DNA of 64,000 bases, taken from contig CBDCKN010000015.1 in NCBI GenBank assembly GCA_965218295.1, positions 1 to 64,000 on the forward strand, written 5' to 3'. A model generated the notes under the pieces. It was given only the letters and a program-made list of their open reading frames with translations, made no database searches and was not told the origin of the DNA. This DNA is from Longimicrobiales bacterium. Lineage in GTDB: Bacteria > Gemmatimonadota > Gemmatimonadetes > Longimicrobiales > Gaopeijiaceae. The stretch's first letter is position 1, and each line of letters opens with the position of its first letter. This document shows, piece after piece, positions 2,662 through 55,134 of this stretch. Both the position numbers and the translations under genes were made by a program.

Positions 2662-3452
2662 CTAAGCAGCCCGCACGAAAAGAGGACCCAGCGCATCCCA
2701 ACGCCTGAGATGCTCTGGCATCAGGAGCTCACGACTGATCCGCGTCAGGACGTGCAGATGCCCCTCCACCGTCGACGCCTCCGACAGCGTGAGCCCCGTG
2801 AGGGAGCGGAACGCGCGGTAGAGATTCCCGTTGCTCGAGTACCCCAAGTGGAGCGCCACCCTGGCCGTCGTCATGCCGTGCCGGGTGAGAAGCTTGCTGG
2901 CACAGAGCGCCCGCAGCCGGGTGGTGTACGCGAATGGCGACGGCAAATCCTGGCGTCGGAATCGGGCCTTGAGCGCCCCAGGCGTGAGCCCCACCGCTTC
3001 GGCTACTTCGTCTAGGCGTGCGTACCTGGATGGGAACTCCAAAGTCCTGCGCCCCAGCGCGCCGAGTTCGAGCGGAAGAGGATGTCCCGCTGCACGGCTC
3101 AAATCTCGGAGAAGCCCCTCCACCCAATCCAAGGGGAGCGCCGCTTCGTTGATCAACTGGCGCATCCTGGCCGGGCCGTGTCGATGCGCTGAATCGCTAT
3201 CGCCGACGCCGAGCGCCGGAGCCCGGGCAAGCCCAAGGGCACCAACTCCAGCACGGGAAGATCGGAGCCCCTGGCCTTGATGGCTCGCTCTACCACCCCG
3301 TCCGCACCCCGCTCAATGACTGACACCCTCGGGAAGCCCAACTCGAGAGCAGCCAGGACATCTTCGACCTCACAGAGGACGTCTTCGGCGGGCAAAGCGG
3401 CCCGCCGAACCGAGTGGAGCAGAAACGAGTCCCTAATCGCGGCGAGGATCAT
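2662..3452 (-). pseudogene. AraC-family transcriptional regulator, frameshifted
   Basis: AraC HTH in 2662-3165 (VALHLGYSSNGNLYRAFRSLTG); N-terminal part in 3153-3452. Removing one copy of tandem GGCCG (3169-3178) fuses them in frame (DTARMRQL). Confidence 0.75.
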
Positions 3453-3612
3453 TCATAAAAACTGTACCACCTCAGAAGGCCCGGCAAGCTTGAGGACGAG
3501 TGCATCGCGTGCCTGTTCGCTCGAAAGTGGGTCCTCACCCAGGGTGGAAGGGGCCCTCGCCCCAAAAGTGGAGGGGCCGATACCCCACGGAAGGCCGGCG
3601 CCCAGCGACCTC

Positions 3613-4491
3613 TCAGATGGGAAGAGGAGTCGGTTGCTCTCCCGACCAGTCGTAGAATCCCTGACCCGTCTTCTTCCCGTATCGCCCCATCGCCGCGATC
3701 CGCTTCAGCAGCGGCGGTGGGGCGTAGCGCTCCTCTCGATACTCGTCGAACATGATCTCCGAGATGCGATAGAGGGTGTCGATCCCCACGAAATCACAGA
3801 GTACGAATGGTCCCATGGGATATCCCAGGCCGAGCGTCATCGCCTTGTCCATGTCCTCGACGCTGGCGACGCCGCGCTCGAGCTGCCTGATGGCATCAAG
3901 CATGTAGGGCACGAGGAGAAGATTCACCACGAAGCCCGAGTTGTCCTTCGCCGCGATGGGCTCCTTCCCGAGGGCTGCGGCGAAGGCGAAAGCGGCGTCG
4001 AAGGCGTCGTCACTCGTGGCGATGGTGCGCACGACCTCCACGAGCTTCATGACCGGCACCGGGTTGAAGAAGTGAAGGCCCACCACCTTGTCGGGCCGGC
4101 TCGTGCCGGCCGCCATATCCGTGATCGGCAGTGAAGAGGTGTTCGAAGCGAAGATCGTATCGGCCCCGCAGAGCTCGTCGAGGGCCGAGAAGAGCTCGTT
4201 CTTGGCATCCAGGTCTTCCACGATGGCTTCCACCACGAGATCACGATCGGCAAGGTCGGCCAGATCGGTCGTAAAGCGGATGCGGCTCCAGGCCGCATTG
4301 CGGTCGGCGGCTTCGAGCTTCCCCTTGTCCACGGCCCGGTCCAGCGACTTCTTGATCGTCCCCTGGCCCGCCTCCAAGAACTCGTCGTTGACCTCGCGAA
4401 CGACGACGTCGAAGCCCGCCTTGGCGGCCACCTCGGCGATCCCGCTCCCCATGAGACCACACCCGGCCACGCCTACCTTTTCTATCTTCAC
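3613..4491 (-). CDS. 3-hydroxybutyryl-CoA / 3-hydroxyacyl-CoA dehydrogenase
   Basis: GCGLMGSGIA Rossmann motif, ASNTSSL, GLHFFNP, DNSGFVVN, GYPMGP; GTG start with GGAGG RBS. Confidence 0.95.
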   Translation of the reverse strand: MKIEKVGVAGCGLMGSGIAEVAAKAGFDVVVREVNDEFLEAGQGTIKKSLDRAVDKGKLEAADRNAAWSRIRFTTDLADLADRDLVVEAIVEDLDAKNELFSALDELCGADTIFASNTSSLPITDMAAGTSRPDKVVGLHFFNPVPVMKLVEVVRTIATSDDAFDAAFAFAAALGKEPIAAKDNSGFVVNLLLVPYMLDAIRQLERGVASVEDMDKAMTLGLGYPMGPFVLCDFVGIDTLYRISEIMFDEYREERYAPPPLLKRIAAMGRYGKKTGQGFYDWSGEQPTPLPI

Positions 4492-4572
4492 TCGTCCTCC
4501 AGATATCGGGTGCCCCGCGTCGGCTACTGGGTCGCCGTCCGACGGTCGCCGAACTCGGGGCACTCGTTCGCG

Positions 4573-5429
4573 CTATAGATCTACCTCATCCCCCGACAGG
4601 TCGAGCTTGAACCTCCTGGCTTGACGCGTCACCCACCTCCGCCACGACGCAGGGGGTGGTGACAGGTCCTCGCCCCGCTCCAAGCGATCGAGGATCCCTT
4701 CCAACTCCTGCTGGACTTCCCCTCTGCGCTTCCGCGAGTAGTGACCTATGATACGCACCACTCCGAGCGCCACCGCCCCACCCACGGCGATCCCGACAGA
4801 CCATGCGGCAGCCGCGGGAACCACGAAGACCGATCCCAGGAGAGCCGCCACACCGAAGGTCATTCCCCCACCCGCTCCCAGCCCGCCCATGACCGCGCCG
4901 GACGTGTAGTCGCCTCGGACGCCCGGATCCACGTCAATCTGCACCAACGTAGAGCCGTCGTCGACCTCATCGAGGCGCACCTCGATCTCCTTGGCAGAAG
5001 CCCAGTAGACCGTCTGCGACATGGAGGCGCCGGCGCGGGCGAAGTTCAAGATCCAGTCTACGGCAGGCCGGTAGAGGAGAACATCGGACCCCTGCCGGAC
5101 CGACTGGAGCAGGTGTCCGGCCACGAGGAACTCGTCGATGATGAGCCGAAGGCGCTCTTTGTCACCGGGCACGACGCGCGAAACCCTCACGGTGGCGGAC
5201 CCGAACCAGCGGGCGATCACGCCTTGGGGATCCTCGGCAGTCCGGATCTCCGTGAGCGCCCGCCGCACGTGGGCATCGGGCAGTCCCACCTCATGAGCGA
5301 TTCGGAACAGCTCCGCCTCGTCGAGAGCGCCCTCACCCCCATCCGGATCCGAAGTGGCGAGCTCCGATGCACGCTTGATCACGGCCTCGACTCCCGTCGC
5401 GTCAGGCTCCTGCCCTTCGCCTCGTCCAT
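4573..5429 (-). pseudogene. Membrane protein of unknown function with a probable -1 frameshift near the 5' end
   Basis: Main ORF 4573-5382 has two C-terminal TM helices. Upstream ATG 5429 (MDEAKGRSLTRRE) joins in frame (EFEAVIKRASEL) if one base is restored at ~5390. Confidence 0.6.
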
Positions 5430-5497
5430 GGTCACCCCGAGCCCACGGTCGCGTCGAGTCCGCCCACGCGCCGTACCCCGTCCATGCCCGCGGTACC

Positions 5498-6703
5498 CTA
5501 CGGGATCTCGACGATCACGGCCCCGCCCTGCCCACCCCCGATGCACGCGGACCCGAGACCGTAGCGGTCTCCCCGCCGGCGCAGCTCATGGAGAACGTGA
5601 ATCGTGATGCGGGCCCCGGACACGGCCAACGGGTGGGTGATGGCGATGGCCCCGCCATTCACGTTGGTTTTCTCGGGATCCAGGCCGAGCTCCTTCTCCA
5701 CGGACTTGTACTGCGGGGCGAAAGCCTCGTTGACCTCCACGATGTCCATGTCCTCGAGGGTCAGGCCCGCCTTCTCCAGCGCCAAACGGGCCGCCGGCGC
5801 CGGGCCAATGCCCATCACGCGGGGCTCCACCCCCACGAAGCCCCAGGACACGATGCGCCCCAGCGGCTCAACGCCATTCTGCTCGGCCCAATCGGCCGAC
5901 GCCACCACAGCGCTGGCCGACCCGTCACCGATGCCGCTGGCATTCCCCGCCGTCACGAGCCCGTCTTCCTTGAAGTACGGGCGGAGTGCACCCAGACCCT
6001 CCACCGTGGTGTCCGGCCGCATGTGCTCGTCGTATGCGAACTCGGTCTCGCCCTTCCGGGACTTGATCGTGACGGGCACGATCTCCGCTTCGAAGCGACC
6101 CTCGTCCCAAGCGGCCTTGGCCCGCTGCTGGCTGTTGAAGGCGACCTGGTCCACTTCTTCACGGGTGACGTCGTACCGCTCCGCCAGCTCCTCCGCCGTC
6201 TGGGCCATGGTCAGATCGCAGTTCGTGTCCAGGAGCGACTCCCAGAGCAGATCCTCGAGGGCGTCGTCGGCGGGTCCGAGCCGAAGGTTGCCCCAACGGG
6301 CTCCCCGCAGAACGTGCGGCGCCTGGCTCATGGACTCGGTGCCCCCGCAGAGTGTCACGTCGGCGCCACCCAGCAGGATCTCCTTGGCACCCTGGACGAT
6401 GGCCTCGAAGCCGGAGCCGCATAGCCGGTTGACCGTGACGGCCGGCTTCTCCTGGGGGACGCCTGAGCGGAGGGCGACGTGGCGCGAAAGGTAGATGGCG
6501 TCCGCCGAGGTCTGCAGCGCGTTGCCAAAGAAAGTGTGGTCGACCTGATCAGCCGTGATGCCCGCCGCCTCGATGGCGGCCTTGCTCGAGAACACACCCA
6601 GATCGGTGGCAGTGAAGCCCTTCAGGCTTCCCCCGAAAGTCCCGAAGGCGGTCCTCTTTCCCGAAAGGATCACGATGTCCTTTGACTGCCCCTGCGTTCC
6701 CAT
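5498..6703 (-). CDS. Acetyl-CoA C-acyltransferase (thiolase)
   Basis: NRLCGSG catalytic Cys, NEAFA, NVNGGAIAITHP, CIGGGQG. Confidence 0.96.
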   Translation of the reverse strand: MGTQGQSKDIVILSGKRTAFGTFGGSLKGFTATDLGVFSSKAAIEAAGITADQVDHTFFGNALQTSADAIYLSRHVALRSGVPQEKPAVTVNRLCGSGFEAIVQGAKEILLGGADVTLCGGTESMSQAPHVLRGARWGNLRLGPADDALEDLLWESLLDTNCDLTMAQTAEELAERYDVTREEVDQVAFNSQQRAKAAWDEGRFEAEIVPVTIKSRKGETEFAYDEHMRPDTTVEGLGALRPYFKEDGLVTAGNASGIGDGSASAVVASADWAEQNGVEPLGRIVSWGFVGVEPRVMGIGPAPAARLALEKAGLTLEDMDIVEVNEAFAPQYKSVEKELGLDPEKTNVNGGAIAITHPLAVSGARITIHVLHELRRRGDRYGLGSACIGGGQGGAVIVEIP

Positions 6704-6809
6704 TAGCCCTCATAGGTCAGATGACTGTGGTCAAACAACGGCGCTCGGAACGGACGCACCGCTGGCCCTGGGCTACCCCCACCGTGCAGGAACGGTTCGT
6801 GATTACCGG

Positions 6810-7019
6810 TAGGAGCCTGTCCGAGTAATGGGGCGAGCCGCGTTAGGAGCGCCGACAAGCGCTAGCGCGCTTGTTACCGGCCAGACCCTAGGCGGCGCCC
6901 CGAAGGCATAGCCATAGCTACGTCGAGGGGCGCCAAGAACGGAGATGGCCCCGTACCGCCCTAACCCGAAGGGCATAGGGGGTTACGCGGCCGCACCCCA
7001 TTATTCGGACAGGCTCCTA
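6810..7019. mobile_element. MITE (~206 bp) with terminal inverted repeats and TA target duplication
   Basis: TAGGAGCCTGTCCGAGTAATGGGG (6810-6833) vs CCCCATTATTCGGACAGGCTCCTA (6996-7019), 23/24 complementary. Internal hairpins; no ORF. Confidence 0.85.
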
Positions 7020-8097: not shown

Positions 8098-8146
8098 CAG
8101 GTGTCCTCGCCGTTCGTATTCTCAATGATACCGTACCTGCCCGTGG

Positions 8147-9416
8147 TCAGCCGTGGAGTGGGTCCAAGCTCCACTCCAGACGGTTCCCCTCCTGAGCCTC
8201 GATCTTCAACTCCCATCGGATACCGGCCTCGTGCGCGATGCGGCTCTCCGCATCACCCGTCCAGCGCACGAACGCGATGGCGGCGATGTCCAGCGCCGAC
8301 TGCAGCCACTTCTCCGGATGTCCCGGAAGGTCCACCGTGACCACGTCGAAATGGAATCCACGAATGGAGTCCAGCTCGGCCGCCCAGTCGTCCTCGCTCA
8401 TGGGAAGCTCAACCGAGAAAGCATGGCTCGCGGCACGGCTATCTGGGTCCGTGAGGTAGATGCTCCGCCATGAAGTGTCGAGCATTAGCGTGGGCAGGTG
8501 AGGGAGGATGTCGTGTGTCGTGGCCGAGCTCCGCCGGGTTCGTGACGACCAAGAATCGGGCCGATCCCGACCGCGCAAGGAGCCGAATCTCGGACAGGAT
8601 CCCCGCAGACGGCGGAGGAAACTGGTCCTGTAGCTGAGAGTACGCGTCGACAGGGCGGAATAGATACTCGGCACCGCTCTCGTCGGCCAAGTACTGGACC
8701 TCGATGGGAGTGACCATGCCATCGCGGTTTACGTGACCGCTCCAGGAAGCCCTCCGCACATCGCCGACCTCCTCGTCCGGCGAGGGTGAGATGAGCTCCT
8801 GGAGCTCGGAGTTCCAGAGGCCTTCCAGAGGTCGACGACGAATGCGGCCCCTGTCGTCGTACCAGGCCCAGGCCCGAGGACCGCGGGTCGAGATGCCGAA
8901 CCGCTTCGACGCCGCATCCAACGCCAGCGAGAACACCTCCTTGATACTAGCGGGGGCGGGACGCTCTTCCTCCTCGTGGGCGGCGGCTCGAGCATACACC
9001 TGCCGGATCAACTCACGGATGTTCGTCGAGGAAGACAGGGCCAGCTCGATCGTCAGATCTGTCCGGGCCTCGAGAACGTCTACCGCCTCCGTCTTGATGG
9101 GTGAATCCACTACGACGGTGAGGACACTCTCCGTTCTCATAATGGGAAGCGTGAGATTGGCGAGCGCCCATTCGGGCGACACCAGAGCCGCCGCCTCCGG
9201 GTCGACGCTGTCGGGGTCCGGGAAGATGTAGGGCAGATCGAACTGGGACGCGAGTCCCCACTCGAGCTCCTCCGGGGTCACGAGCGCGAGGGCCAGAAGC
9301 GACTCGCCGAAGAATCCCCCAGTCTCGTGCTGGTGCGCCAGCGCCTTCTCCACATCCTCTTCCGTGATGCGGCCGAAGCTCATGAGGATCTGACCGATGG
9401 TACGTCGTTCAGCCAT
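8147..9416 (-). pseudogene. MshEN/GspE-N-terminal domain protein (c-di-GMP receptor-like) without a Walker A ATPase, frameshifted
   Basis: RRTIGQILMSFGRITEEDVEKALAHQ..FGESLLALALVTPEELEWGLASQ matches the MshEN tandem motif. A 7-bp duplication at 8509-8522 splits it into ORFs 8439-9416 and 8147-8722. Confidence 0.75.
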
Positions 9417-9422
9417 CTTAGG

Positions 9423-10191
9423 TCATCCGTTGCTGTGAGATGGCGAGGGCTCGCCCGCCGACAGGACGTCGCAGATCTACCCGCCTACGTCGGCCGTGGA
9501 GCTGCTCCCCCCTAGATCGGGTGTCGTCACGCCTTCGCTGAAGGCCCTCCGGACCGCAGTCTCGACGGTCGCCGACTCCTCGCTCCAACCGAAGTGCTCG
9601 AGAAGCAGGGCGACGCATCGGATCGCGCCCATGGGGTTCACGATGCCTTCCCCCGCTATGTCAGGTGCAGAGCCGTGGACTGGCTCGAAAAAAGCGTGGC
9701 GACCCGGATGCACATTGGCGGAAGGCGCGAGCCCCAAGCCGCCCGTGACCTCCGCGGCCAGGTCGCTGAGAATGTCCCCGAACAGGTTCGAGGTTACGAT
9801 CACCGAGTATTGGTCCGGGCGACGCACGAGATCCATGGCCATTGCGTCCACATACATACAGTCTTGCCGGACGTTGGGATAGCCCTCACCCACCTCGGTG
9901 AAGGGCCGGCGCCACAGCGAGCCCGCCATGGGCATGGCGTTCGCCTTGTCCACCATGGTCACCCGATCGCGCCCGTTGGAGACCGCATGCTCGAAGGCTG
10001 CGCGAGAGGGAGCGAAACTCCTCGTCCGTGATCGTCACCCCGTCCGTGAGGTAGCGCTCGGCCCCGATGTCCTGCTCAGCAAGCTCGAGATCGAGGCCAG
10101 CAACGTCTCGGAGGCACTCCAATACCCGAGTCGCCTCGCGCGTCACCTCGGTGCCGATCCCGTCTCCAGGGATGATGGCGATTCAAGGCAT
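9423..10191 (-). pseudogene. Isocitrate/isopropylmalate/tartrate dehydrogenase family pseudogene
   Basis: MP*IAIIPGDGIGTEV start with TGA at 10183-10185; internal deletion plus frameshift at ~10005; NLFGDILSD and FEPVHGSAPDIAG retained; second nonsense TAG at 9477-9479. Confidence 0.9.
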
Positions 10192-10195
10192 CAGC

Positions 10196-11535: not shown

Positions 11536-11557
11536 GGGGCTCAGTCTAGGAAGGGAT

Positions 11558-13355: not shown

Positions 13356-13367
13356 AGTAAACACAAC

Positions 13368-19582: not shown

Positions 19583-21507
19583 ATGCGACGACTCTCGGCC
19601 ATCATGTTCACCGACATGGTGGGCTTCACGGCCCTGATGCAGGAGGATGAGCATCGGGCGAAGAGCATCCGCGACCGTCATCGGGACGCGCTCCGCGAGT
19701 CCATCGAAAAGCACGGCGGGGAGATTGTCCAGTTCTACGGTGACGGAACCCTCAGCGTCTTCGGCAGCGCCGTCGAGGGGGTCAACGCCGCCGTCACCGC
19801 ACGGCGGCGATTACAAGAGAGTCCCGCGATCCCGGTCCGGATCGGAATCCACATCGGGGACATCAACCACGACGAGGACGGGATCTACGGGGACGGCGTC
19901 AACGTCGCCGCCCGCATCCAGGGCCTCGCGGTTCCGGGAGGCGTGCTCGTTTCCGGCAAGGTCTTCGACGAGATCAAGAACCACCCGGAGCTACCGGCAA
20001 CGGGGCTGGGCGAGTTTGAGCTGAAGAACGTCCAGCGACCGGTCCGGATCTTCGCTGTCTCGGCATCGGGGCTCACGGTTCCGGACCCGAAGCAGATGAA
20101 CCCCAAGGAGCAGCCGAAGAAGACCATCGCCGTGCTCCCCTTCGTCAATATGAGCGCCGATCCGGAGAACGAGTTCTTCAGCGACGGAATCTCCGAGGAG
20201 CTCATCAACGCCCTGACTCGGATCGAAGGGCTCCAGGTGACGGCCCGCACGTCTTCCTTCGCCTTCAAGGGCAAGAGCAAGGACGTGCGCAAGATCGGAA
20301 AGGATCTGGGCGTCAGCGCCGTACTGGAGGGCAGCGTCCGCAAGGCCGGCGATCGAGTGCGGATCACCGCACAGCTGATCGACACTCGGGACGGCTACCA
20401 CATCTTCTCGAAGGTGTACGATCGGGTCCTGGAGGACATCTTCAAGACCCAGGACGAAATCTCCCTCGAGATCGCGAACGAGCTGCGGGCCACGCTGCCG
20501 GGCAATGGCGACAAGCAGCCTCTCGTCACGGCCCCGACGGAGAACTCCGAGGCGTACGACTCCTACCTCAAGGGACTGTACTGCTGGTATCAGTGGACCC
20601 CCGACGCCGCGCTCCAGGCGGTCGATCACTTCCAGCACGGGGTCGATCTGGACCCCGAGTTCGCCCAGGCCTGGGCGGCCATGGCGCGCACTCACACCTA
20701 CCTGGCCGCCATCGGGTGTCTCACGGCCTGTGGTGAGGCGTACGGATGTGCCTCCGACGCGGCCGGGAAAGCCATCGAGCTCGATCCCGACCTCGAGGAC
20801 TCCCATGTGGCCCTGGCCCTGGTGCGACTCTTCCACGACTGGGACCTGCCCGCGTGCGAGGCGTCGTTCCTGCGAGCCATGTCCATCAACCCGGACTCGG
20901 TTGAGGTCCTGCACGGCTACTCCCTGTACTTCACTGCCGCCGGCCGTCACGAGGAGGCCGTCACCGTCCTGGAGAAGGCTGCCACCATCGATCCCCTCAA
21001 CCTTCCGGTGCGGGATCACCTGGCTCGGGCCTACATGGCCACGGAGCGCTTCGACGAGGCCCTGGTCCAATTCGATCGGGTCATGGAGCTGGATCCCGAG
21101 TTCCGGGCCGTGCTCGAGGGCAAGGGCTATACCTACATGGTCATGGATCGCCTCGACGACGCCCTGACGCCCTGGCCACCTTCGAGCAAGTGCGGGAGCT
21201 GACGCCTCACCCCAAGGGCGGCATCACACCTCTGGCCATTGCCTTGGCTTTCGCCGGCCGCACGACGGAGGCGGAGGAGCTATTGACCATCATCGAGGAA
21301 CGTGAGCGGGAAGAGCCCGACGTGTCCCTGGACCTGGACTTCGCCTCCGTCTACTGGGCCCTGGGGCGGTCGGACGAAGCGATGGCTCGGCTTCGCAAGG
21401 CGGCCGAATCGCGCATCGGCGCTCTCGTCTTCCTCAGACACAGCCCGAGCTGGTATCTCGGGAAGCTGGAGGGCGTCTCGGAGTTCCTGGCGGAGCACGG
21501 ACTTTAG
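19583..21507 (+). pseudogene. Class III adenylate/guanylate cyclase + TolB-like + TPR protein, frameshifted near the C-terminus
   Basis: IMFTDMVGFT, YGDG, RIGIHIGD, GDGVNVAARIQ; IAVLPFVNMSADPENEFFSDG; TPRs. An 8-bp duplication GACGCCCT at 21158-21173 breaks the frame. Confidence 0.88.
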
Positions 21508-22889: not shown

Positions 22890-23051
22890 CGACCCCGGCT
22901 AGTGTTCCGTTGCCAAAGTTCGCGAGCCACCAAGAGGGCCGGGGCGCCGTGGGATCAAGGCGGGACGACGCGGCGTAGCGCAAGCTACGGTAAGGAGTTC
23001 CAACGCCGAGCCTGCGGATGCACCGTGCCCTCGACTGGCCGAGACACTTTG

Positions 23052-23093
23052 GTAACGGGACACTAGTTACGGGACACTAGTTACGGGCCACTA
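23052..23093. repeat. 14-bp tandem repeat x3 overlapping a stop codon
   Basis: GTAACGGGACACTA / GTTACGGGACACTA / GTTACGGGCCACTA. Confidence 0.85.
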
Positions 23094-23944
23094 ATAGCGC
23101 TCGCCCTAGGATGGATGGGCGTGCCTGGCGTGATGCTACGTAGATGCAGGGTCACGGAGCCAGCGACGGGAATCTTGGAGCGGAGATAGACCAGGTAGCG
23201 ATTCTCGTCGTCCGTGAAGTGGAGCTCCGCCTCACCCCCCTCACTGAAGAGCCCGCGGGTCTTGATGATGGGCCGGACCACGATGGTGTTGAAGGTACCA
23301 GCAGAGGTCTCACGGACCTCCTTGCGCACCACCTTGATGACGACCGGATTTCCTTCCTTCTTGAAGTAGCGCGGAACCGTGTAGGTCTTGCCGACCTCGA
23401 GCGGCAACGTTCGCACGAAGTAGATGAAGGCGACATCGTCCAGTGGCAGTGCCGTGGCCAGGTCGCCGAACTCGTCGTTGTCCGCTCGTTCCCAGTACAG
23501 CTCTTCAGGATAGAACTCGTAGTACCGGTAGCTCTTGTAGCTGAGCTCGTGGATGTCGCGGATGTAGCGGCGGGTGACGATGAGGCGAGTGTCGATCCAC
23601 GAATCGTATAGGTCGTCGACCTTGGCGGCGCCGAATAGGAGGCTCCCTCGAAGAGCCATCTGGACGTGATACGTGGGCTCCCCGCGGATCGAGTCCACGC
23701 CGAGGACGTCCATGTAGGCGTCGCCGGCGGGGAAGACGCCGATCTTGACCTGATACTCGAGGCGCTCGCCAGGCCCCCAAGGGACCACGGCGGCGAACGG
23801 GTCGATCTCGTACTGGACGACCGCCGTGGAATCGGCTGCCGGGACGTCGAGGGTGTCACCATTCGTAGACCCGTTGGACACCTGCGCCGTTACCCCGAAA
23901 GGCGCGACGACTACCAGGAATCCAGCCATCCAAGCCAATCGCAT
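23081..23944 (-). CDS. DUF3108-like exported protein
   Basis: Signal peptide; GERLEYQV...E.RETSAGTFNT..V.P pattern; TGATG coupling to the GT2 gene. Confidence 0.75.
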   Translation of the reverse strand: MRLAWMAGFLVVVAPFGVTAQVSNGSTNGDTLDVPAADSTAVVQYEIDPFAAVVPWGPGERLEYQVKIGVFPAGDAYMDVLGVDSIRGEPTYHVQMALRGSLLFGAAKVDDLYDSWIDTRLIVTRRYIRDIHELSYKSYRYYEFYPEELYWERADNDEFGDLATALPLDDVAFIYFVRTLPLEVGKTYTVPRYFKKEGNPVVIKVVRKEVRETSAGTFNTIVVRPIIKTRGLFSEGGEAELHFTDDENRYLVYLRSKIPVAGSVTLHLRSITPGTPIHPRASAISGP

Positions 23945-28796: not shown

Positions 28797-28822
28797 AAGA
28801 CCACTTCGACCATAGAGGCTAG

Positions 28823-30415
28823 CTAGCTCCCTCCGGGAGTCGGGTGTCCGGTCGATCGAGGAGTGAGCCGGGCGACGGGCACGATCATCTCCTCTGGCGA
28901 GATGCCCCCGTGGAGGAACGAATTCCGGTACCGCCGCTGGTACTCCCTCAGCTTGGTCGGATAGACGAAGAAGTAGTCATCCAGCGCCAGGACGTACGTC
29001 GTTCCCAGCTTTCCCCCGGGAAGGCGAAGGTCTTCGCTCCGGGGCGTCGCGAATGCCGCCCGGGTATCCTCCGCCCTGAGGTCCTGACCGAACTTGTAGC
29101 GAAGGTTGCTGGTGGCATCACGCCTGGCGAACACCGTCGTTGGATGCTGGCACAGGATGGAGCCGTGATCGGTGGTCATGATCACGTTGTGGCCGGCCAC
29201 AGCCGCCTCTTTGAGAACGGAGAAGGCCGTCGATCTCTTGAACCACGCCCTCGTAAGACCTCGAAGCGCCGCCTCGTCCTTCGCCACCTCCATGAGGATG
29301 GGCGATTCGCTTCGTCCGTGTGTCATGAGGTCCACGAAGTTGAAGACCATTGCGATCACTGATCCGGGCTGCTTGAGGGCCGAGCCGACGCGGCCCCGTA
29401 CCTGATCGCCCTCACGGTCGGTGAAGATCTTCTCGTAGTGTACCGGGACCTTGCGACCCGTGAGACGCTCCAGCTGGGCCTCCAGCAACTCGTCCTCGAA
29501 GGCGTTCAGGCTGCCCTCGTCGTCGGAGCGATTCCACCAGCTGGGACGGTCTTCGGCGATCTGATCCGGAAACTGACCGCTGAACAGGGCATTCCTGGCG
29601 TAGGGCGTGGCGGTGGGCAAGATCGAATAGTGGTACGACTCCTCGATCTCGAAGTGCGGCGCGATGAGCGGGGCGATGACCCGCCACTGGTCCAGCCGCA
29701 TGCAGTCCAGGACCACCAGGAAGACCGGATCCTCACCCAGCAGCGGAACGAGGTGCTCCCGGACCACGTCCACCGAGAGAAGCGGGCGCTCCCCCTCGCC
29801 ACGCATCCAGCGGGGATACTCTCTACCGATCCAACGACCGAAATCGTTGCGGAGGTCGGTCATGAGCGCCTGGACGGTATCCAGGAGCCCCGCCTCCCCC
29901 GCCTCCTCGAGTCGTACGTGCCAGTCCGTGAGCTCGATGTACACTTCGGCGAAGTCGTCCGGACTCCGGGCCTCCTGCCGCTTCATCGAGAGCCGTCCGA
30001 AGCGCGACGCGAAGTCCTGTGCCACCCTTTGCTGCCGTATGGTGGACCCCTCCAGAATACGGGTCACGACGGAGAGCACCTGACGGGGGCTGGTGGGCTT
30101 CACGAGGTAGTCGGCCACGCGCCGGCCGATGGCCTCGGTCATGGTGTGGTCCTCCTGGGACTTGGTCACCATCACCACCCGTGCGTGCGGATCCTCCCGG
30201 CGCATAATCTCCAGTACCTCCAGGCCCCGCCTCCCGGGCATCTGCTCGTCGAGAAGTACGAGGTCGTAGGCGTGCTTCCGCATCAACACGAGCGCGTCGT
30301 CGCCGTTGGTGATGGCATCGACGTGGTACCCCCGCGCCTGCAGAAACAGGAGGTGGGGCTTGAGAAGGTCGATCTCGTCGTCGACCCAGAGGATGCGCTT
30401 TCCTGACAGTTCCAT
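28823..30415 (-). CDS. PorX-like response regulator with PglZ/alkaline-phosphatase domain
   Basis: Receiver WVDDE..LDEQMP..TK..VKP; PglZ motifs LDCMR, PTATPYARN, FNFVD..H, TTDHG, HGG. Confidence 0.88.
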   Translation of the reverse strand: MELSGKRILWVDDEIDLLKPHLLFLQARGYHVDAITNGDDALVLMRKHAYDLVLLDEQMPGRRGLEVLEIMRREDPHARVVMVTKSQEDHTMTEAIGRRVADYLVKPTSPRQVLSVVTRILEGSTIRQQRVAQDFASRFGRLSMKRQEARSPDDFAEVYIELTDWHVRLEEAGEAGLLDTVQALMTDLRNDFGRWIGREYPRWMRGEGERPLLSVDVVREHLVPLLGEDPVFLVVLDCMRLDQWRVIAPLIAPHFEIEESYHYSILPTATPYARNALFSGQFPDQIAEDRPSWWNRSDDEGSLNAFEDELLEAQLERLTGRKVPVHYEKIFTDREGDQVRGRVGSALKQPGSVIAMVFNFVDLMTHGRSESPILMEVAKDEAALRGLTRAWFKRSTAFSVLKEAAVAGHNVIMTTDHGSILCQHPTTVFARRDATSNLRYKFGQDLRAEDTRAAFATPRSEDLRLPGGKLGTTYVLALDDYFFVYPTKLREYQRRYRNSFLHGGISPEEMIVPVARLTPRSTGHPTPGGS

Positions 30416-31157: not shown

Positions 31158-31299
31158 CGGGAATCGGTCACCTCATCCCTGGGGCAACTGGCACCCTTAT
31201 AGTACCGCCTGATGCGTGTGCGGGTTTCGTCCACGGCTACCCAACCCGCAGCCTACCGAGCAAGATCCCGAACTCACAATCCACGATCGGCAGGTGGCC

Positions 31300-40737: not shown

Positions 40738-41714
40738 TCAGTCTCCGAGCACGTGTGAGAAGATCAGGGGAGCCACGATGGAAGCGTCGGACTGGATGTG
40801 GAAGCGCGGCGTCTCGGGGGCCAGCTTGCCCCATGTGATCTTCTCGTTCGGAAGAGCACCGGAGTATCCGCCGTACGATGCCGGAGCATCGGTGATCTGG
40901 GCGAAGTATCCCCAGAAGGGGGTCTCTCGCTTCAGATCCTGGAGGATGCATGGTACCGCGCAGATCGCGAAGTCACCGGCGATGCCTCCTCCGATCTGAA
41001 AGAAGCCCGCCGAAGGTCTCCCCTCGCCCACCCCATTGCTCGCCAGATACCACTCCAGAAGGTGCTGGAACTGCTCCGTCCCCGACTCACGCAGTGATGG
41101 TGGGGGACGACGCCCATCATGACATTGGCCGCGAAAATGTTTCCCGTGGTCGAGTCCTCCCAGCCGGGGGCGTAGACCGGAATCCCCATCTCCATAGCCG
41201 CCAGCACCCACGAGTCCGCCGGGTCGATCTGGTAGCGTTCCTCCAAGGCACCGCCCCGCAGGATCTCGAACAGGAACTCCGATGGGAATCTCCGCTCGTC
41301 GGACTCGCACGCCCTCTTCCACTCCTCGGCAAGACGGCCCTCCACGTGGCGCATGACGTCCTCGGGAATGCACGTGTCGGTCACGCGGTTCATCCCTCTG
41401 CGGTAGAGACCGGCCTCATCCTCCGCACTCAACGCACGCCAGTCCGGGATGATCTCATACTCGTGATGGGCCAGGAGATTGAAGACGTCCTCCTCCAGGT
41501 TGGCGCCCGTACACGAGATGGCGTGAACATTCCCCTCGCGAATCATGCGGGCGAGGCTCACGCCTAGCTCACCGGTGGACATGGCCCCCGCCAACGCCAC
41601 CAACATCCTCCCACCGGCGCCCACATGGGCATCGTACGCCACGGCCGCCGCAAGAGTCTCCCGGGCGTTGAAGTGCCGGTAGTGACGTGTCATGAACTGT
41701 CGGATATGACCCAT
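40738..41714 (-). pseudogene. Deoxyhypusine synthase-like protein, frameshifted
   Basis: LAGAMST, CTGANLEED, IGGG, YGGYSGA..NEKITWGK, SDASIVAP. One base is missing at ~41087 (CV[K]SGTEQF). Confidence 0.85.
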
Positions 41715-46091: not shown

Positions 46092-46093
46092 CG

Positions 46094-46252: not shown

Positions 46253-46254
46253 CC

Positions 46255-46289
46255 TACGTGTTGGATGCCAAAAGGGTTCAGTCGGTTGC
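46255..46289 (-). promoter_or_regulatory. Putative ECF-sigma promoter(s)
   Basis: GAAC(46279-46276)-N17-CGTA(46258-46255); an overlapping GCAAC-N17-CATCCAA is also present. Confidence 0.45.
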
Positions 46290-46350
46290 ATCCCCACCCG
46301 ATGCCCACATCACTATCTACACCGTTCAGAGCTCGGCATTACAGCAAGCT

Positions 46351-46758: not shown

Positions 46759-46767
46759 TTCTCGTCA

Positions 46768-48048: not shown

Positions 48049-48181
48049 CAGGGTTCTTCTCGGGATGGGCCGGCAGGGACCACGACTCGGCATGAATGTG
48101 GGGTGCGGCTGGCTCGGGATCAGCCTATAAGTTTAGGGTAAAGGTCCGAGATTCAAAGACTTCATACGCCACCGGTCTGCC

Positions 48182-49581: not shown

Positions 49582-49634
49582 TGCCCGGCGTCCGGGTGTG
49601 GCTTCCGTCCGAAGTTCGATCTGGTTGACCCCGG

Positions 49635-50843: not shown

Positions 50844-50973
50844 CCCGGAATATCGAGAGAGGTCGTCCCTCAATCAAGTGAGGTCCGCGGCACCCCGGAG
50901 TCGTGGAATCGGGCTTTGTTCGCGGGCCGGCCGCGAGCTTGATCCCTCCCACCGCGAGCAGCAGGTTTCACCT

Positions 50974-51561
50974 GTGAACGAGCGCGCACAGATCGTCTTC
51001 TACTTCGACTACGTCGATCCCGGATCCTACGTTACGGACGTACAGCTGGGGCGGCTTCTGCCCCCCGAAGTCGAGGTTACCCGTCACCCGTTCGAGCTTC
51101 GCCCACCGCCCGAAGACCTCATGGATCCGGGGAGCCCGGAATGGAGGACCTATCGGCAGTCCGTGACGGAACTCGCCGCGGCAGTCAAGCTCGGTCTGGC
51201 CTCTCCCGATTTCATGCCCTGGACCCGCAAAGCCCATGAGCTCAGGCTACACGCCGCCGAGAAGGGCCTGGAGGGCCCCATCCACGACGCACTCTTCAAG
51301 GCACGATTCGAGGACGGGGCGGACATCGGGCGCGTCGACGTTCTGGTGGGTCTGGCGGCGGGCTTGGGCCTGGATCTGACCGAAACCAAGGCCGTGCTCG
51401 ACGTGGACCGCTACGCGGATCGGGTCGCAGAGCTGAGACGCCTAGCGGAGGCAGAGGGTGTAGAGCGCACGCCCACCGTCCACATCGGGTCCGAGCGCCT
51501 TGAAGGTCCGCTTCGGATCGACGACCTTCGAGGGCTCTTGGAGGCAGCGCGTCTCGTGTAG
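50974..51561 (+). CDS. DsbA/FrnE-like thioredoxin-fold protein lacking CxxC
   Basis: FYFDYVDPGSY in place of CPWC; PFELRP; TRKAHE; GVERTPT. Confidence 0.75.
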   Translation: MNERAQIVFYFDYVDPGSYVTDVQLGRLLPPEVEVTRHPFELRPPPEDLMDPGSPEWRTYRQSVTELAAAVKLGLASPDFMPWTRKAHELRLHAAEKGLEGPIHDALFKARFEDGADIGRVDVLVGLAAGLGLDLTETKAVLDVDRYADRVAELRRLAEAEGVERTPTVHIGSERLEGPLRIDDLRGLLEAARLV

Positions 51562-51619
51562 TTCGAGGGTTACGTGACGTGCCGGAAGTACCGCACGAGC
51601 CAATACAGAAGGGCACTCG

Positions 51620-51922
51620 ATGGCAGGTTATCAGCGTAAGACGGCTCTCTCACCATCGGAAGTCCTGTCGAAGGCCGAGGAGTTGCTTCCCGAGTGGATC
51701 GGCCTCACCAAATCGAAGAGCTCGACCCACGGTGCCACGTACACGGGCAACGAGGGCACGGTCACGCTCACGGCCCATCGTCACGGCCCTTACACCGAGG
51801 TAGTCGCGTCCAGTGATCGACTGCGGACCTCCCGCATGGACTACGAGATCCAGAAGTTCCTGACCGAGCTTCCGTACGAGCCGGGGGACGCCGGTGGACG
51901 GGGATCCGGGGACCCTTCGTGA
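51620..51922 (+). CDS. Hypothetical protein
   Basis: 100-aa ORF; GTGA overlap with the next gene. Confidence 0.7.
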   Translation: MAGYQRKTALSPSEVLSKAEELLPEWIGLTKSKSSTHGATYTGNEGTVTLTAHRHGPYTEVVASSDRLRTSRMDYEIQKFLTELPYEPGDAGGRGSGDPS

Positions 51923-53517
51923 CCCACTCCTTCGAAGATCTGGAGGTCATGCCGGAGCTGGTCGAGGCGCTGGCGGCCGAAGGGCTAGAGGAGCCTTCGG
52001 AGTTTCAGCGCGCCGCCATTCCGGTCATGCGCCGGGGCAACAACCTTCTCGGGGCCGTCGGCCCTGGAGCCGGAACCCTGGTCGCCTACGGAGTGGCTTT
52101 GCTGGAGCGTACCGTGGCTGGGGCCGGACGACCTGGAGCCGTCGTCCTCACCGCCACGAGCGAAGCCGCCACGGCCCTCGCCGAGTCCCTGGGACGGATC
52201 GCCCTCTCCACGGGCCACTCGCTCGGAGCGCTGGGAGGGGCGTGGGCCCTGCCCGAACGGACGGACGTCCTCTTCGGAACTCCACGAGACATCCGAGCGG
52301 CGGTCGACGGCTCTCAGCTTACCCTCGAGGGTGTCCAGACCGTGGTCGTGGATGGAGCGAGCGCGATCGAGGCGGCCTCAGGTTTGGATTCCGTGAGTGC
52401 CCTCTTCGAGTATCTGGGGACCGGAACCCAGAGAATCGTCCTCAGCCTGCCGATCACACCTTCGGTCGAGGCGCTCGTCTCGACACACGTGGCCAAGGCG
52501 GTCCAGGTCCCGCCCCGCCCTATCGCCGAGGAGCAGGAGGCGCGGTCGCCGGATAGGGGGAAGCTGCGCTTCCGGATCACCGGCGAAGACAAGGTGGAGG
52601 CCCTCCTCAGACTCGTAGCCGAGCTCTTTGCAACCGAGGCCCGGCACGTTCTGGTGTTCTGCCGCTCCGAGGACCGCGTGGCGGATGTCGCAGACTTTCT
52701 GGCCCTCCACGGCTACATGGCCGGGTCACCGGGAGACGACTCGCTTCCCCTATGGCTGACCGTGGCACCGCTACAGGCCCGTGAGGCCCTGGCAAGCCTC
52801 GACTCATCGGAAGACGTGTCGACCGTCAGTCTGGACTGTCCGCCCGACGTGGACACCCTGGACCGGCGCCACGGAGCCGGCGGCCAGGCCACGGTGTTAC
52901 TCCTCTCGCGAGAAGTCCCCCACTTCAGGGACACGGCCCGGCGGGCCGGATACGGCGTCCGCCCTCTTCCGCCACCACCGACGGTGGTAGAGGACCGCAT
53001 CGACGAGATCCGTCAACGACTGGTGGACGCAGCGAAACGGGAAGATCTCGCGCCCCACTTCCTGATCCTGGAGCCTCTCCTGGAGCGCTTCAGCCCTCAG
53101 GAGCTCGCCGCCGCCGCCCTGGCTCTACTGTCCCGGCCAACCACTGCCACCGACGCTCACCCGGCCGCCAAGGCCAGAGCCGAGAAGGCCACGGGGACCG
53201 ACGGCTGGACGCGCCTCTTTGTCAGCGTCGGAGAGATGGAGGGCGTGAAGCCCGGTAACCTTCTGGGGACGCTGGCCGGCGAGTCGGGCGTGGACGGATC
53301 CAACTTCGGGAAGATCGAGATCCGAGACACTTACTCGCTGGTGGAGGTGCGGCCCTCGGAGGCCGAGAAGGTCATCAAGGCGGTCAACGGCCTGAGTATC
53401 CGAGGACGCAGCACCCGGGTGGACTACGATCGGGGCGCGGGGAGCAAGGGCAGCAAGCCGGGAAATTGGGGGGGAACACACCCCCGACCCCGCAGATCCG
53501 AGGATCCACGGGGCTGA
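51919..53517 (+). CDS. Degenerate DEAD-box-like protein with C-terminal DbpA RNA-binding domain
   Basis: Q-motif PSEFQ kept; Walker A GPGAGTL and VVDGAS replace GKT and DEAD; C-terminal RLFVSVG..GVKPGNLLG..FGKIEIRDTYSLVEV. Confidence 0.8.
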   Translation: MTHSFEDLEVMPELVEALAAEGLEEPSEFQRAAIPVMRRGNNLLGAVGPGAGTLVAYGVALLERTVAGAGRPGAVVLTATSEAATALAESLGRIALSTGHSLGALGGAWALPERTDVLFGTPRDIRAAVDGSQLTLEGVQTVVVDGASAIEAASGLDSVSALFEYLGTGTQRIVLSLPITPSVEALVSTHVAKAVQVPPRPIAEEQEARSPDRGKLRFRITGEDKVEALLRLVAELFATEARHVLVFCRSEDRVADVADFLALHGYMAGSPGDDSLPLWLTVAPLQAREALASLDSSEDVSTVSLDCPPDVDTLDRRHGAGGQATVLLLSREVPHFRDTARRAGYGVRPLPPPPTVVEDRIDEIRQRLVDAAKREDLAPHFLILEPLLERFSPQELAAAALALLSRPTTATDAHPAAKARAEKATGTDGWTRLFVSVGEMEGVKPGNLLGTLAGESGVDGSNFGKIEIRDTYSLVEVRPSEAEKVIKAVNGLSIRGRSTRVDYDRGAGSKGSKPGNWGGTHPRPRRSEDPRG

Positions 53518-53524
53518 AACTAGG

Positions 53525-53562
53525 AGAGGCCACGCCCACTGACCGCGTCGGGCGTGGCCTCT
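53525..53562. terminator. 13-bp perfect hairpin between convergent genes
   Basis: AGAGGCCACGCCC / GGGCGTGGCCTCT. Confidence 0.65.
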
Positions 53563-53606
53563 ATCCGATCCTTATCCTCAGGGGGGCTAACCCGCCTGGG
53601 CCGTTG

Positions 53607-53888
53607 CTACTGGATGGCGTCTTTGAAACCTTTACCGGCGCGAAAGCCGGGGGTCTTCGAAGCCGGAATGTGAATCGTAGCACCTGTACGAGGATTCCTG
53701 CCCATACGGGCCTTGCGGTGCTTCGACTCGAATGTACCAAAGCCTGTGATCTGAACGCGTCTGTCCATCCTCAGGGCCCCGGCGATGATGCCGCGTCCGC
53801 CAAAGAGTGCGTCCATGGCCCGAGAGGCGTCGGCCTTGGTCATGCCGGCGCGGTCGGCAAGGGCGGCTACCAGATCGGATTTGTTCAT
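53607..53888 (-). CDS. hup: DNA-binding protein HU
   Basis: MNKSDLV...GFGTF...GRNPRTG..I.IPA...P.FRAGK; GAGGAG RBS. Confidence 0.95.
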   Translation of the reverse strand: MNKSDLVAALADRAGMTKADASRAMDALFGGRGIIAGALRMDRRVQITGFGTFESKHRKARMGRNPRTGATIHIPASKTPGFRAGKGFKDAIQ

Positions 53889-54041
53889 TGCGTTGCTCCT
53901 CAAATGGTGTGATGAGATACGGATCACGGCCTCTGCTGGCCTTCATCGAGCCCCGAACGGGGTTCTCACGCCTCGGGCCTATCGCGCGAGAAATTTGAGC
54001 AAATGGGCCGCGACTGATTCGGGCGAGCTTTGGTCTGGTCT

Positions 54042-54071
54042 ACGGTAAAGCCCCCCCCCTTGGGCCGTCAA
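54042..54071 (-). promoter_or_regulatory. Sigma70-type promoter of hup with G9 in the spacer
   Basis: TTGACG(54071-54066)-N18-TACCGT(54047-54042). Confidence 0.6.
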
Positions 54072-54167
54072 GAGAAAATTGGCTGAAAACCCGCATCCTG
54101 CCTAGCTTCTGATGGAATCCGGGGTTCGCCGGCACTTCTCCACCGTTTTCAGGAGGCCTACTGCGCG

Positions 54168-54655
54168 ATGCGCGTGTTCATCCCGCGCTTCCTGGGAGCC
54201 CTTGCGTATCTGGTGGGGCTCGCCCTGGTCGGGGTCGTGGGCTACACCATCATCGAAGGGTGGGGGATCCACGACGCCCTCTACATGAGCGTCATCACGA
54301 TCACGGCCGTGGGCTACTCCGAGGTGCTGCCCCTTTCCGAGCTCGGGAGGGACTTCACCATGGCCCTCCTGACCGCCGGAATCACCGGAGTGGGAATTTG
54401 GTTCGCCCTGATCACTTCGTTCATCGTCGAGTTCGACCTAAGCGACGTCAGAAGGAGACACCAGATCATGCGCAGCATCGAGGCTTTGAACGACCATATC
54501 GTCCTCTGTGGAGGCGGGCGGACAGGGCGGCAGGTCATGGAGGAGCTCCTGTCCCTGGGGCAGGAGTTCGTGGTCATCGAGCGCGATCCCAAACGCATGG
54601 AGTGGATCCACGAGCAGTACCCTGAAGTGCTCACCGTGATAGGAGACGCGACGCT
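54168..54655 (+). pseudogene. Potassium channel (pore + TrkA-N/RCK), 3'-truncated
   Basis: DALYMSVITITAVGY pore, HIVLCGGGRTG Rossmann; similarity ends at GDAT and the ORF runs into non-coding sequence. Confidence 0.8.
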
Positions 54656-54753
54656 ATCCCGGCCGGCCGGCTCACCCTACCCACCTGGCAAGAAAAAGCC
54701 CCTGGGCGCCCGACATAGCGCCCGGAGGCTCCCGACATACGGCACGGAGCCGA

Positions 54754-54939
54754 TCAGTCGTCGGCGTCCTCGGTCCTGCAGCGGCAACGCTTGAACAGCG
54801 TCAACACCGCGAAGCCGACCAGCATGATGAGGGCCAGCTTGAGCAACGCTCCCACCATTGGGAGGAACAGTATGCCCAGCACCTTCCAGAGAACCACGCC
54901 CGAGAAGCCCAGCAAGGCGACTTGACCAAACATCCTCAT
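54754..54939 (-). CDS. Small two-helix membrane protein
   Basis: GGAGG RBS; 61 aa, hydrophobic; followed by a hairpin plus T-run at ~54690-54731. Confidence 0.7.
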   Translation of the reverse strand: MRMFGQVALLGFSGVVLWKVLGILFLPMVGALLKLALIMLVGFAVLTLFKRCRCRTEDADD

Positions 54940-54983
54940 CTCGACCTCCCACTCCATGTAACTGCGACGACAGTGGTGTCCCC

Positions 54984-55010
54984 TACGAGCTGGCCAGAAA
55001 CAGAGTTTCA
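54984..55010 (-). promoter_or_regulatory. Putative ECF-sigma promoter TGAAAC-N17-CGTA
   Basis: Close match to the SigW-type consensus, upstream of the small membrane protein. Confidence 0.55.
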
Positions 55011-55104
55011 CGGGTGGAGGCGACCGGCGCGCCGCGGACTCTGCTGACTTGGACGAAAGAGGGCCGGGAGGCTCGGCTGCGGCGCCTTCGGGCGCCGGGA
55101 CCGA

Positions 55105-55134
55105 TTCTACTTGTACCGGTTCTACTTGTACCGG
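55105..55134. repeat. Exact 15-bp tandem duplication of the infA 3' end
   Basis: TTCTACTTGTACCGG x2. Confidence 0.9.

Follow-up and report, generated by a model that had tools for sequence, protein, structure and literature searches.

Short tandem duplications in a Longimicrobiales genus carry a topoisomerase I-type C(-4) mark at both ends of the same strand

Bachar et al. (NAR 2019, PMC6954433) state in the relevant passages that the first origin of tandem repeats in non-repeating DNA is not known. The window analyzed here is a 64,000-nt stretch from a Longimicrobiales bacterium (a marine organism). The preliminary description listed five short exact tandems (5, 7, 8, 14, and 15 bp) and read them as the gene-inactivating signature of a lineage-specific mutational process. 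All five were found where described, with the 14-bp tandem starting at 23055 rather than 23052. The features under discussion are as follows:

3169..3178, minus strand: apparent 5-bp tandem; in fact a G4-to-G3 loss splitting an AraC-type regulator gene into the pieces 3153-3452 and 2662-3165
8509..8522, minus strand: 7-bp duplication without microhomology, frameshifting an MshEN-domain gene (8439-9416)
21153..21174, plus strand: 8-bp duplication (unit run 21158-21174, 1 bp microhomology) in an adenylate/guanylate cyclase-TPR gene
22899..23066, no strand: 168-bp palindromic MITE at a TA within CTAG, intergenic, with IS630-like ends
23055..23087, no strand: 14-bp tandem (run of 33) at the right end of the MITE, 5 bp microhomology
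31185..31215, plus strand: single-copy site; the orthologous site in two congeners has a 10-bp duplication
55101..55135, plus strand: 15-bp duplication (unit run 55105-55135, a run of 31; 1 bp microhomology) at the end of infA

The five flagged spots are of mixed origins, the product of unrelated events, and few genes are broken by them. Exact tandems of 5, 7, and 8 bp occur 54, 6, and 1 times in the window, compared to ~70, 5.6–5.8, and 1.2–1.7 in Markov simulations; the counts for these three lengths are at chance level. Tandems of 14 and 15 bp appeared in none of 60 simulations at each Markov order, and windows with as many were found in 4/48 (14-bp) and 9/48 (15-bp) cases across the genome. 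Collapsing one unit lengthened the open reading frame at 3169 (99 to 261 a.a), 8509 (325 to 420 a.a), and 21158 (539 to 638 a.a), as had been described, but the first of these is not a duplication. At 23055 and 55105, the reading frames remained the same length when collapsed (282 a.a and 71 a.a, respectively).

The ancestral state was polarised with two congeners, G001 and G002, which are ~95% identical to the source genome (G000), and close strains were checked using public short-read contigs from seven runs, none from the source sample. While G002 was unaligned at 3169, G001 carries one extra G there (GGCCGGGGCC) with the frame intact, and the site is therefore a 1-bp homopolymer loss, contrary to the earlier statement that none of the tandems were homopolymer errors. 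Adding one G gives an ORF of 263 a.a in this split regulator gene (Pfam HTH_18), and the site counts among 42 one-base frameshifts relative to G001. The G loss is possibly a consensus error. The units at 8509 and 21158, by comparison, are single copy in both congeners. The frameshifted gene at 8509 (325 a.a in place of 420) is of the MshEN-domain type by Pfam, and the motif test described below (a C at position -4 of both unit ends on the same strand) detected no mark there; it is a short duplication outside the marked class. The 21158 duplication splits the cyclase-TPR gene into 19583-21202 and 21190-21507 (Pfam, ORF lengths), and on the plus strand T(-5) and C(-4) occupy 21153-21154, with the second C(-4) at 21162, the full mark of the type expected for topoisomerase I (TopA). 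Its 8-bp unit is single in six of the seven close-strain runs, the remaining run (X1) having no coverage at the site.

G001 has one copy of the 55105 unit, with G002 not covering the site. The duplication copies the 3′ end of infA (55122-55337, minus strand), from the final codons through the stop. The gene product is IF-1 by Pfam and is 71 a.a with or without the duplication. On the plus strand, the duplication has C(-4) at positions 55101 and 55116. When metagenomes were scanned for this site, neither allele was matched. The 21158 and 55105 duplications both fit the TopA-type class. At 31185..31215, the 10-bp duplication in both congeners, without microhomology and with the both-end C(-4) mark, is single copy in the source genome, which shows that the marked class exists in independent assemblies.

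Assembly or consensus error, as a general account of the private duplications, is very unlikely. This account draws on the 1-bp coding indels (42 in the source genome against 12 in G001), the 19 of 50 source-genome frameshifts located within ~11 kb of contig C3, the absence of the 8-bp duplication from six close-strain runs, and the lack of either infA-site allele in the metagenome scan. However, duplications are common to independent assemblies (one lies in an IS copied into both the source genome and G002), the 14-bp piece is seen in short-read contigs, and an assembler is not expected to follow C(-4). Assembly or consensus error plausibly covers only 3169 and perhaps 8509.

The proposal that such sites are selected, reversible on/off switches fares worse still and is scarcely credible. 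Two-copy units of 7–8 bp could indeed collapse by slippage with the frame restored, but only ~5 such frameshifts occur in ~3,000 genes (4 of 312 candidates, plus 8509), the units are present in two copies only and are not common to relatives, most duplication events are non-coding or in frame, and no duplicated 8-bp allele occurs among the matches listed from the seven runs (contigs from other strains). Nor do the duplications amount to a gene-inactivating signature: two of the five tandems touch no protein, and among 50 gene-breaking frameshifts relative to G001 (659 kb aligned), duplications account for two and 1-bp indels for 42. A process specific to this lineage is likewise not apparent, with eight exact-tandem indels of at least 5 bp in the source genome and seven in G001. 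The rate is low (nine events of at least 7 bp per 29,693 substitutions, ~1 per 3,300), and duplications do not dominate the mutation spectrum. As first framed, a lineage signature of gene inactivation or switching, the finding is ordinary.

The 14-bp tandem has its own history. The MITE site (22899-23066) is empty in both congeners and in close-strain runs X1 and X20, and the congeners also lack the extra 14 bp. Runs X1 and X20, however, carry a MITE-less allele that retains the extra 14 bp, so the 14-bp piece is real. It lies past the stop codon of a DUF3108 gene (23081-23929, minus strand), leaves the protein unaltered, and is a by-product of the MITE end. The MITE resembles IS630-dependent, TA-target MITEs such as RUP in being <200 bp and palindromic, with a TA target duplication and IS630-like ends, as given in the relevant passages of Delihas (2008, PMC2229807); this likeness applies to the 22899-23087 site only. 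Its ends resemble those of IS630 elements in G001 and in a further genome, G011, and an IS630 transposase is present in 4/4 relatives searched, with none found in the source assembly, which is 91% complete.

This site lends some color to the idea that the duplications are target-site duplications left behind after IS elements or MITEs were excised. Repeats of at least three copies make up 8.3% of the genome, three resident families have 8-bp target duplications (24/39, 4/7, and 1/4 copies) matching the length of that at 21158, and for 3-bp repeats Danneels et al. (2018, PMC6054270) appeal to excision of IS30 in the passages relevant here. However, resident elements give 8-, 3-, and 2-bp duplications, and in unique non-coding sequence the surplus of tandems tapers off smoothly between 6 and 24 bp, without a spike at any of these lengths. 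Paired MITE ends have the 2-bp TA repeat in 59/59 cases, none with a long flanking repeat; TA sites at duplication ends lack the CTAG bias of MITE targets; and 11/89 duplications lie ≤300 bp from a repeat, compared to 13.9% of the genome. We consider excision footprints highly improbable as the source of these duplications.

Polymerase slippage in a mismatch-repair-deficient lineage is given a similarly small probability. Among 83 two-copy events, approximately 16–20 show at least 4 bp of microhomology and may be slippage products, and the MITE-end tandem has 5 bp; ~65/83 follow the chance microhomology curve. Examination of the repair genes found MutS (941 a.a) and MutL (621 a.a) with intact open frames, RecA present, and a standalone Ku adjacent to LigD (841 a.a), both intact. 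Slippage is likely the route for the high-microhomology minority, but it does not predict the C(-4) mark, and the marked class does not require it.

It is at the ends of the longer duplications that a specific mutational process, acting without any prior repeat, was borne out for some of the flagged sites. In source-genome duplications of at least 13 bp with microhomology ≤2, a same-strand C(-4) occurs at both ends in 33/38 (87%), compared to 11.7 expected (p < 1e-5) on the basis of local control sites with the same coding status and microhomology; at a threshold of at least 11 bp, the figure is 41/52 against 15.5. When 32 base and offset pairs were scored, C at -4 was the sole outlier (49/67 against 19.9), the runner-up being G at 8 (31 against 19.6); the motif had also shown in an unguided profile. 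The mark recurs in separate DNA of the congeners (6/11 against 2.7, p = 0.03) and, for duplications of at least 11 bp, in four other genera (6/10 against 3.1). Of 13 duplications for which a congener shows the single unit, 11 carry the mark, including 11/11 of those of at least 8 bp. The two ends differ across 33 oriented events: the upstream end has T(-5) in 22/33, A/T at -2 in 85% (background 38%), and C at -2 in 0/33, whereas the downstream end has T(-5) in 14/33, A/T at -2 in 33%, and C at -2 in 11/33, such that the fuller T-C-W-W motif is confined to the upstream end. The mark was undetectable at ≤8 bp (19/77 against 17.1 for non-coding duplications of 7–8 bp) and not clear in non-tandem indels (22/53 against 18.7). 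In genes, marked events showed no strand bias relative to transcription (7 against 12).

The strand layout bears on end-joining, in which staggered nicks on opposite strands would leave overhangs for fill-in and ligation by Ku-LigD. This model is established in eukaryotes (animals and plants), where Schimmel et al. (2021, PMC8355091) describe, in the passages concerned, fill-in/NHEJ duplications at paired nicks that are likewise short with little microhomology, and both enzymes are intact here, with microhomology at chance level. The opposite-strand requirement, however, contrasts with a mark that lies on one strand. Among zero-microhomology duplications of the source genome, the same-strand layout accounts for 18/19 (3.7 expected); the two opposite-strand layouts, 7/19 and 5/19, exceed their null of 1.7, but these counts are explained by one fixed C plus a 31% background. 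Furthermore, a marked 16-bp event occurs in genome G021 (92% complete), in which no Ku was found, and duplication densities per Mb do not sort cleanly by Ku in these small samples (9.2, 4.4, 4.0, 10, and 0 with Ku; 0 and 6.2 where Ku was not found). Ku-LigD fill-in is therefore considered improbable.

The same-strand C(-4) at both ends is the cutting rule of topoisomerase I, so TopA likely creates new tandem repeats here. We put the probability at about 0.6 that the genus has a background class of ~9–30 bp tandem duplications, arising from non-repeated DNA with ends that obey the TopA C(-4) rule on one strand, and that TopA is the maker. The rule and the residues that read it (R169, R173, and Y177) are described by Narula and Tse-Dinh (NAR 2012, PMC3467081), the relevant passages of which concern cleavage biochemistry and do not mention duplications. 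The pocket residues are conserved in both congeners, each of which has one type IA topoisomerase with R168, R169, D172, R173, Y177, and Y319 intact and with P474A and T285I (E. coli also has I at the latter) as the only genus-specific substitutions; in the source genome, the topA locus and its neighbors are missing from the assembly.

In the proposed mechanism, TopA would cleave a strong site and remain bound to the 5′ end, while the freed 3′-OH would be extended across the unit by strand displacement, probably by Pol I, which is present. TopA would then reseal the strand, linking the 5′ end it holds to the extended 3′ end where a C four bases back fits the R169/R173/Y177 pocket. The strand would thereby carry the unit twice, and replication would fix the duplication in one daughter. 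A unit-long loop exceeds what MutS handles.

Another nicking-joining enzyme with a C(-4) preference, or a TopA nick followed by a different ligase or template switch, is unlikely though somewhat less so than end-joining. The mark is statistical, the genome is rich in transposases, and the E. coli control discussed below is only partly positive. On the other hand, only topoisomerase I and reverse gyrase are named as obeying the C(-4) rule in the relevant passages of PMC3467081, the congeners have a single type IA enzyme, and the downstream C(-4) would be hard to explain unless the 3′ end had sat in the TopA pocket.

The closest known system to duplication by TopA is the E. coli topA R168C mutator, which produces repeat-independent, head-to-tail duplications of ~4–36 bp with a type IA topoisomerase implicated (PMC6954433, relevant passages). 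As here, no prior repeat is needed, but the congeners keep R168, and the duplication rate here is low. The support that R168C duplications lend to a TopA mark is mixed. Bachar et al. report no TopA-like motif at their hotspots in the passages concerned, and their R168C duplications in galK and tdk show no mark (3/17 against 3.5 expected); 15 of these are ≤12 nt, and both longer ones fit. Genome-wide R168C duplications of at least 9 bp have the same-strand mark in 5/10 (2.0 expected, p = 0.03) and the opposite-strand layouts in 0/10, with C at 7 and T at 2 equaling C at 4 (5/10).

The literature covered by our search, which excluded most subscription journals, contained no report of a C(-4) mark on duplications. 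In plasmids of Bacillus subtilis, Meima et al. (NAR 1998) reportedly described illegitimate deletions linked to TopA, in which both end-points, lying in non-repeated AT-rich sequences, share a C at -4. Those events are deletions, whereas here it is the duplications that are marked and non-tandem indels show no clear mark. In bacterial pseudogenes, Danneels et al. found 110/217 insertions to be direct repeats with sizes following a power law, and made no link to an end motif or topoisomerase in the relevant passages (PMC6054270).

An 87% marked fraction among long, low-microhomology duplications in a natural genome suggests a specific route for the birth of tandem repeats. We raise more tentatively, at a little under even odds, the possibility that, across bacteria with intact mismatch repair, new tandem repeats have a general source in wild-type TopA, its scar being the asymmetric same-strand mark with a full site upstream and only C(-4) downstream. 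If true, TopA-made insertions could be counted in any genome.

New tandem duplications in G000, the genome to which the window belongs, carry a strong, replicated, low-rate mark of the topoisomerase I (TopA) type. Topoisomerase I cleaves DNA four bases 3′ to a C that it reads through R169, R173, and Y177 (PMC3467081). An unguided profile of duplication ends displayed a C at four bases beyond one end and a G at four bases within the other (41/80 and 37/80, versus 24.8). Scored as a C four bases before both ends on one strand (the C(-4) mark), with expectations drawn from nearby control sites of equivalent coding status and microhomology (a prior repeat at the joint), this signal was carried by 33/38 G000 tandems of ≥13 bp, versus 11.7 by expectation, and by 41/52 of ≥11 bp, versus 15.5. 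The 38 were drawn from 54 distinct tandems of ≥13 bp, with 16 left out for microhomology >2, more than three copies, or a position ≤450 bp from a contig end. The mark recurred in 6/11 events (2.7 expected) from 1.8 Mb of the congeners G001 and G002, and in 6/10 events of ≥11 bp (3.1 expected) from 0.76 Mb of four other genera. It was undetectable at ≤8 bp, and in non-tandem indels it was not significant (22/53 versus 18.7).

The geometry of the mark bears on end-joining with fill-in repair, one of the sources suggested in the preliminary description. Ku and LigD are intact open frames in G000, as are MutS, MutL, and RecA; however, fill-in predicts the wrong geometry, given that zero-microhomology duplications fit the same-strand layout in 18/19 cases and the two opposite-strand layouts in 7/19 and 5/19. 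Ku was found in 29 of the 41 genomes searched, and the comparison of tandem density between genomes with Ku and those where it was not found, at 160–200 kb per control genome, is underpowered; tandems reaching 10 bp were absent from 50 kb of E. coli, too little for a conclusion. A 1025-a.a open frame at Ku was considered as a Ku-LigD fusion and rejected.

In the mechanism we propose, TopA would cut at a strong upstream site and hold the 5′ end of the unit, while strand-displacement synthesis would carry the freed 3′-OH over the length of the unit; the genome has a Pol I. Where the newly made 3′ end has a C(-4), TopA would seal to it the 5′ end that it holds, leaving a strand with the unit twice, as a loop, which replication would fix. 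Such a loop is too long for MutS. This cut, extension, and rejoining would yield same-strand geometry, asymmetry between the ends, no need of microhomology, and smooth lengths. Among 33 oriented events, the upstream site showed T(-5) in 22, A/T at -2 in 85%, and C at -2 never, with little beyond C(-4) at the downstream site. Another nicking enzyme would be the rival to TopA in this scheme. The C at -4 stands alone among the 32 base/offset pairs, with no other coming near. A similar mark was reportedly seen by Meima et al. in 1998 at both ends of plasmid deletions in B. subtilis. Our literature search found no report of this mark on duplications.

The topA gene and its neighbours are missing from the G000 assembly, most likely through an assembly gap. 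G001 and G002 each encode one type IA topoisomerase, a TopA, in which the listed catalytic and pocket residues are intact, indicating that the congeners are not mutants of the E. coli R168C type. A P474A change (E. coli numbering) in these two TopA proteins (L259 from G002 and L260 from G001) is specific to the genus, with P in 28/28 relatives. The R168C topA mutant makes repeat-independent duplications for which Bachar et al. (PMC6954433) found no TopA-like motif and left the mechanism open. Using event positions from their supplement, our control on this mutant is mixed. Among the rows listed there, the 10 genome-wide events of ≥9 bp showed the same-strand mark in 5/10 (2.0 expected, p = 0.03) and the opposite-strand layouts in 0/10, with C at 7 and T at 2 scoring equal to C at 4. 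In the listed galK/tdk events, mostly ≤12 nt, it occurred in 3/17 (3.5 expected). One 2-nt insertion was dropped and repeated alleles were merged; units <9 nt, three 19–20 bp replacement rows, and one (unit)2-to-3 row were left out of the listed genome-wide set.

Slippage without mismatch repair had also been proposed, and finds little in its favour here, as MutS and MutL are intact and microhomology is mostly at chance. Of the 83 tandems of ≥10 bp with exactly two copies, 33, 20, 10, and 4 had microhomology of 0, 1, 2, and 3, following the chance curve (0.52, 0.28, 0.13, and 0.05), so most tandems do not need prior repeats; 16/83 had microhomology ≥4. That the class is an artefact is argued against by some events common to independent assemblies, indicating a biological origin.

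Mobile elements abound in the G000 genome (3.57 Mb, 17 contigs, 91% complete, 65% GC; the window spans the opening 64 kb of contig C15), with repeats of ≥3 copies making up 8.3% of it, and target-site footprints of excised elements were a further proposal. Resident elements make target duplications of 8 bp (24/39, 4/7, and 1/4 copies), 3 bp (23/40), and TA, with two IS481-like families and a second IS256-like family excluded. IS family names are labels we assign from protein motifs, except for the rve domain in the window, which is from Pfam. Despite these 8- and 3-bp duplications, the surplus of tandems, measured over 608 kb of unique non-coding DNA, declines smoothly from 6 bp (227 versus 142 at 6 bp, 56 versus 39 at 7, 23 versus 11 at 8, 11 versus 2.5 at 9, and 6 versus 0.6 at 10), with a tail to 24, which speaks against footprints. 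Tandems lay within 300 bp of a repeat in 11/89 cases, versus 13.9% of the genome. Long, variable target duplications by MITEs were sought and rejected (0/59). TA is frequent near duplication ends (25/64 versus ~10.5 in G000; 7/18 versus 3.2 in the congeners); IS630/MITE activity was rejected as its source, with TA equally frequent inside units and no CTAG bias, and a T-rich upstream site explains it better. The rve-domain IS at 1190–2289 has ~40–50 genomic copies with 3-bp target duplications, and several copies of its type contain an internal 10-bp tandem, also seen in G002.

All five tandems in the preliminary description are present in the sequence:

3169, 5 bp, in an AraC-type gene
8509, 7 bp, in a MshEN gene
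21158, 8 bp, in a cyclase-TPR gene
23052, 14 bp, at the right terminus of a MITE (168 bp) flanking a DUF3108 gene
55105, 15 bp, at the end of infA

Ancestral states were taken from G001 and G002 (~95% identical), using pairwise alignments instead of a three-way anchor alignment, in which synteny is broken beyond ~45 kb of the window. The tandems at 8509 and 21158 are true new duplications, each with a single unit in both congeners, and frameshift their genes in the manner claimed. The 3169 tandem, said not to be a homopolymer error, only looks like a duplication and in fact lost one base from a run of G, given that G001 carries one more G; the frame is restored equally by removing 5 bases or adding 1. 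Among duplications with a single-unit state in a congener, 11/13 fit the C(-4) mark, including 21158 and 55105, the other two being 8509 and a 5-bp A-rich duplication. Reversible switches had been suggested too. The 8-bp unit was single in 6/7 public runs of other strains among the matches listed (run X1 had no coverage; runs with small word shares, X6–X14, were left out); DNA related to the window is present in runs including seawater and marine sediment metagenomes. The nearest named match to a protein of the window, at 94%, bears a Longimicrobiales label.

Of the two longer tandems, described as sitting on stop codons, that at 55105 does repeat the infA stop, with IF-1 still 71 a.a, and the DUF3108 gene at 23052 is likewise unaltered. 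Neither allele of the infA site turned up when metagenomes were scanned by pattern. The extra 14 bp at 23052 is retained in contigs of two public runs where the MITE is absent, and is thus real; it may be a leftover of the MITE, the product of slippage at the MITE end followed by excision, or a duplicated piece of flank that took one substitution. In G000, paired MITE ends show a TA target repeat in 59/59 cases and resemble an IS630 element of G001. This family decays to shorter forms, down to 20–50-bp remnants, which account for several G000 indels relative to G001. A CTAG-CTAG tandem at 28820–28827, with 5 extra bases between the copies in G002, could be a genuine scar of MITE excision. An excess of tandems held for the 14- and 15-bp lengths, which exceed simulations (equalled in 4/48 and 9/48 genome windows), but not for exact 5-, 7-, and 8-bp tandems (54, 6, and 1 versus simulated ~70, 5.7, and 1.2–1.7).

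Comparing G000 with G001 (659,382 aligned bases, 29,693 substitutions, 408/509 indels cleanly placed), the duplications are not lineage-specific: G000 has 8 indels of ≥5 bp that are exact tandems, and G001 has 7. At ≥7 bp with microhomology ≤3, there were 4 and 5, respectively, or ~1 per 3,300 substitutions. Nor are they a gene-inactivating signature: duplications make up 2/50 gene-breaking G000 frameshifts, both in the window, while 42/50 are 1-bp changes. Genome-wide, collapsing restores a coding frame in 4/312 out-of-frame 7–40-bp tandems, or about five in total with 8509, which fell under the scan threshold; genes were called within this analysis. That direct repeats often arise from insertions in decaying bacterial genes is already known (110/217 insertions in PMC6054270); the gene inactivation described is ordinary, and the claim was partly wrong as written.

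One- and two-base frameshifts crowd into ~11 kb of another contig (C3:165000–177000; 19 of the 50), suggesting consensus error there, with a decaying operon as the alternative. At 41087 in the window, a 1-bp loss, possibly also consensus error, truncates a deoxyhypusine synthase-like gene (40932–41714). Relative to G001, a 308-bp deletion at 10005 splits an isocitrate/isopropylmalate dehydrogenase-family gene (312 a.a in G001), and a potassium channel/TrkA-N gene (54168–54794) is shortened at ~54655; its G001 counterpart is broken elsewhere, by a stretch with a 440-a.a transposase-like ORF. Finally, the strong upstream motif is enriched in in-frame 9-bp coding tandems of G000 (12/64 versus 3.4 expected), so the TopA-type process is a likely source of new tripeptide repeats in proteins.
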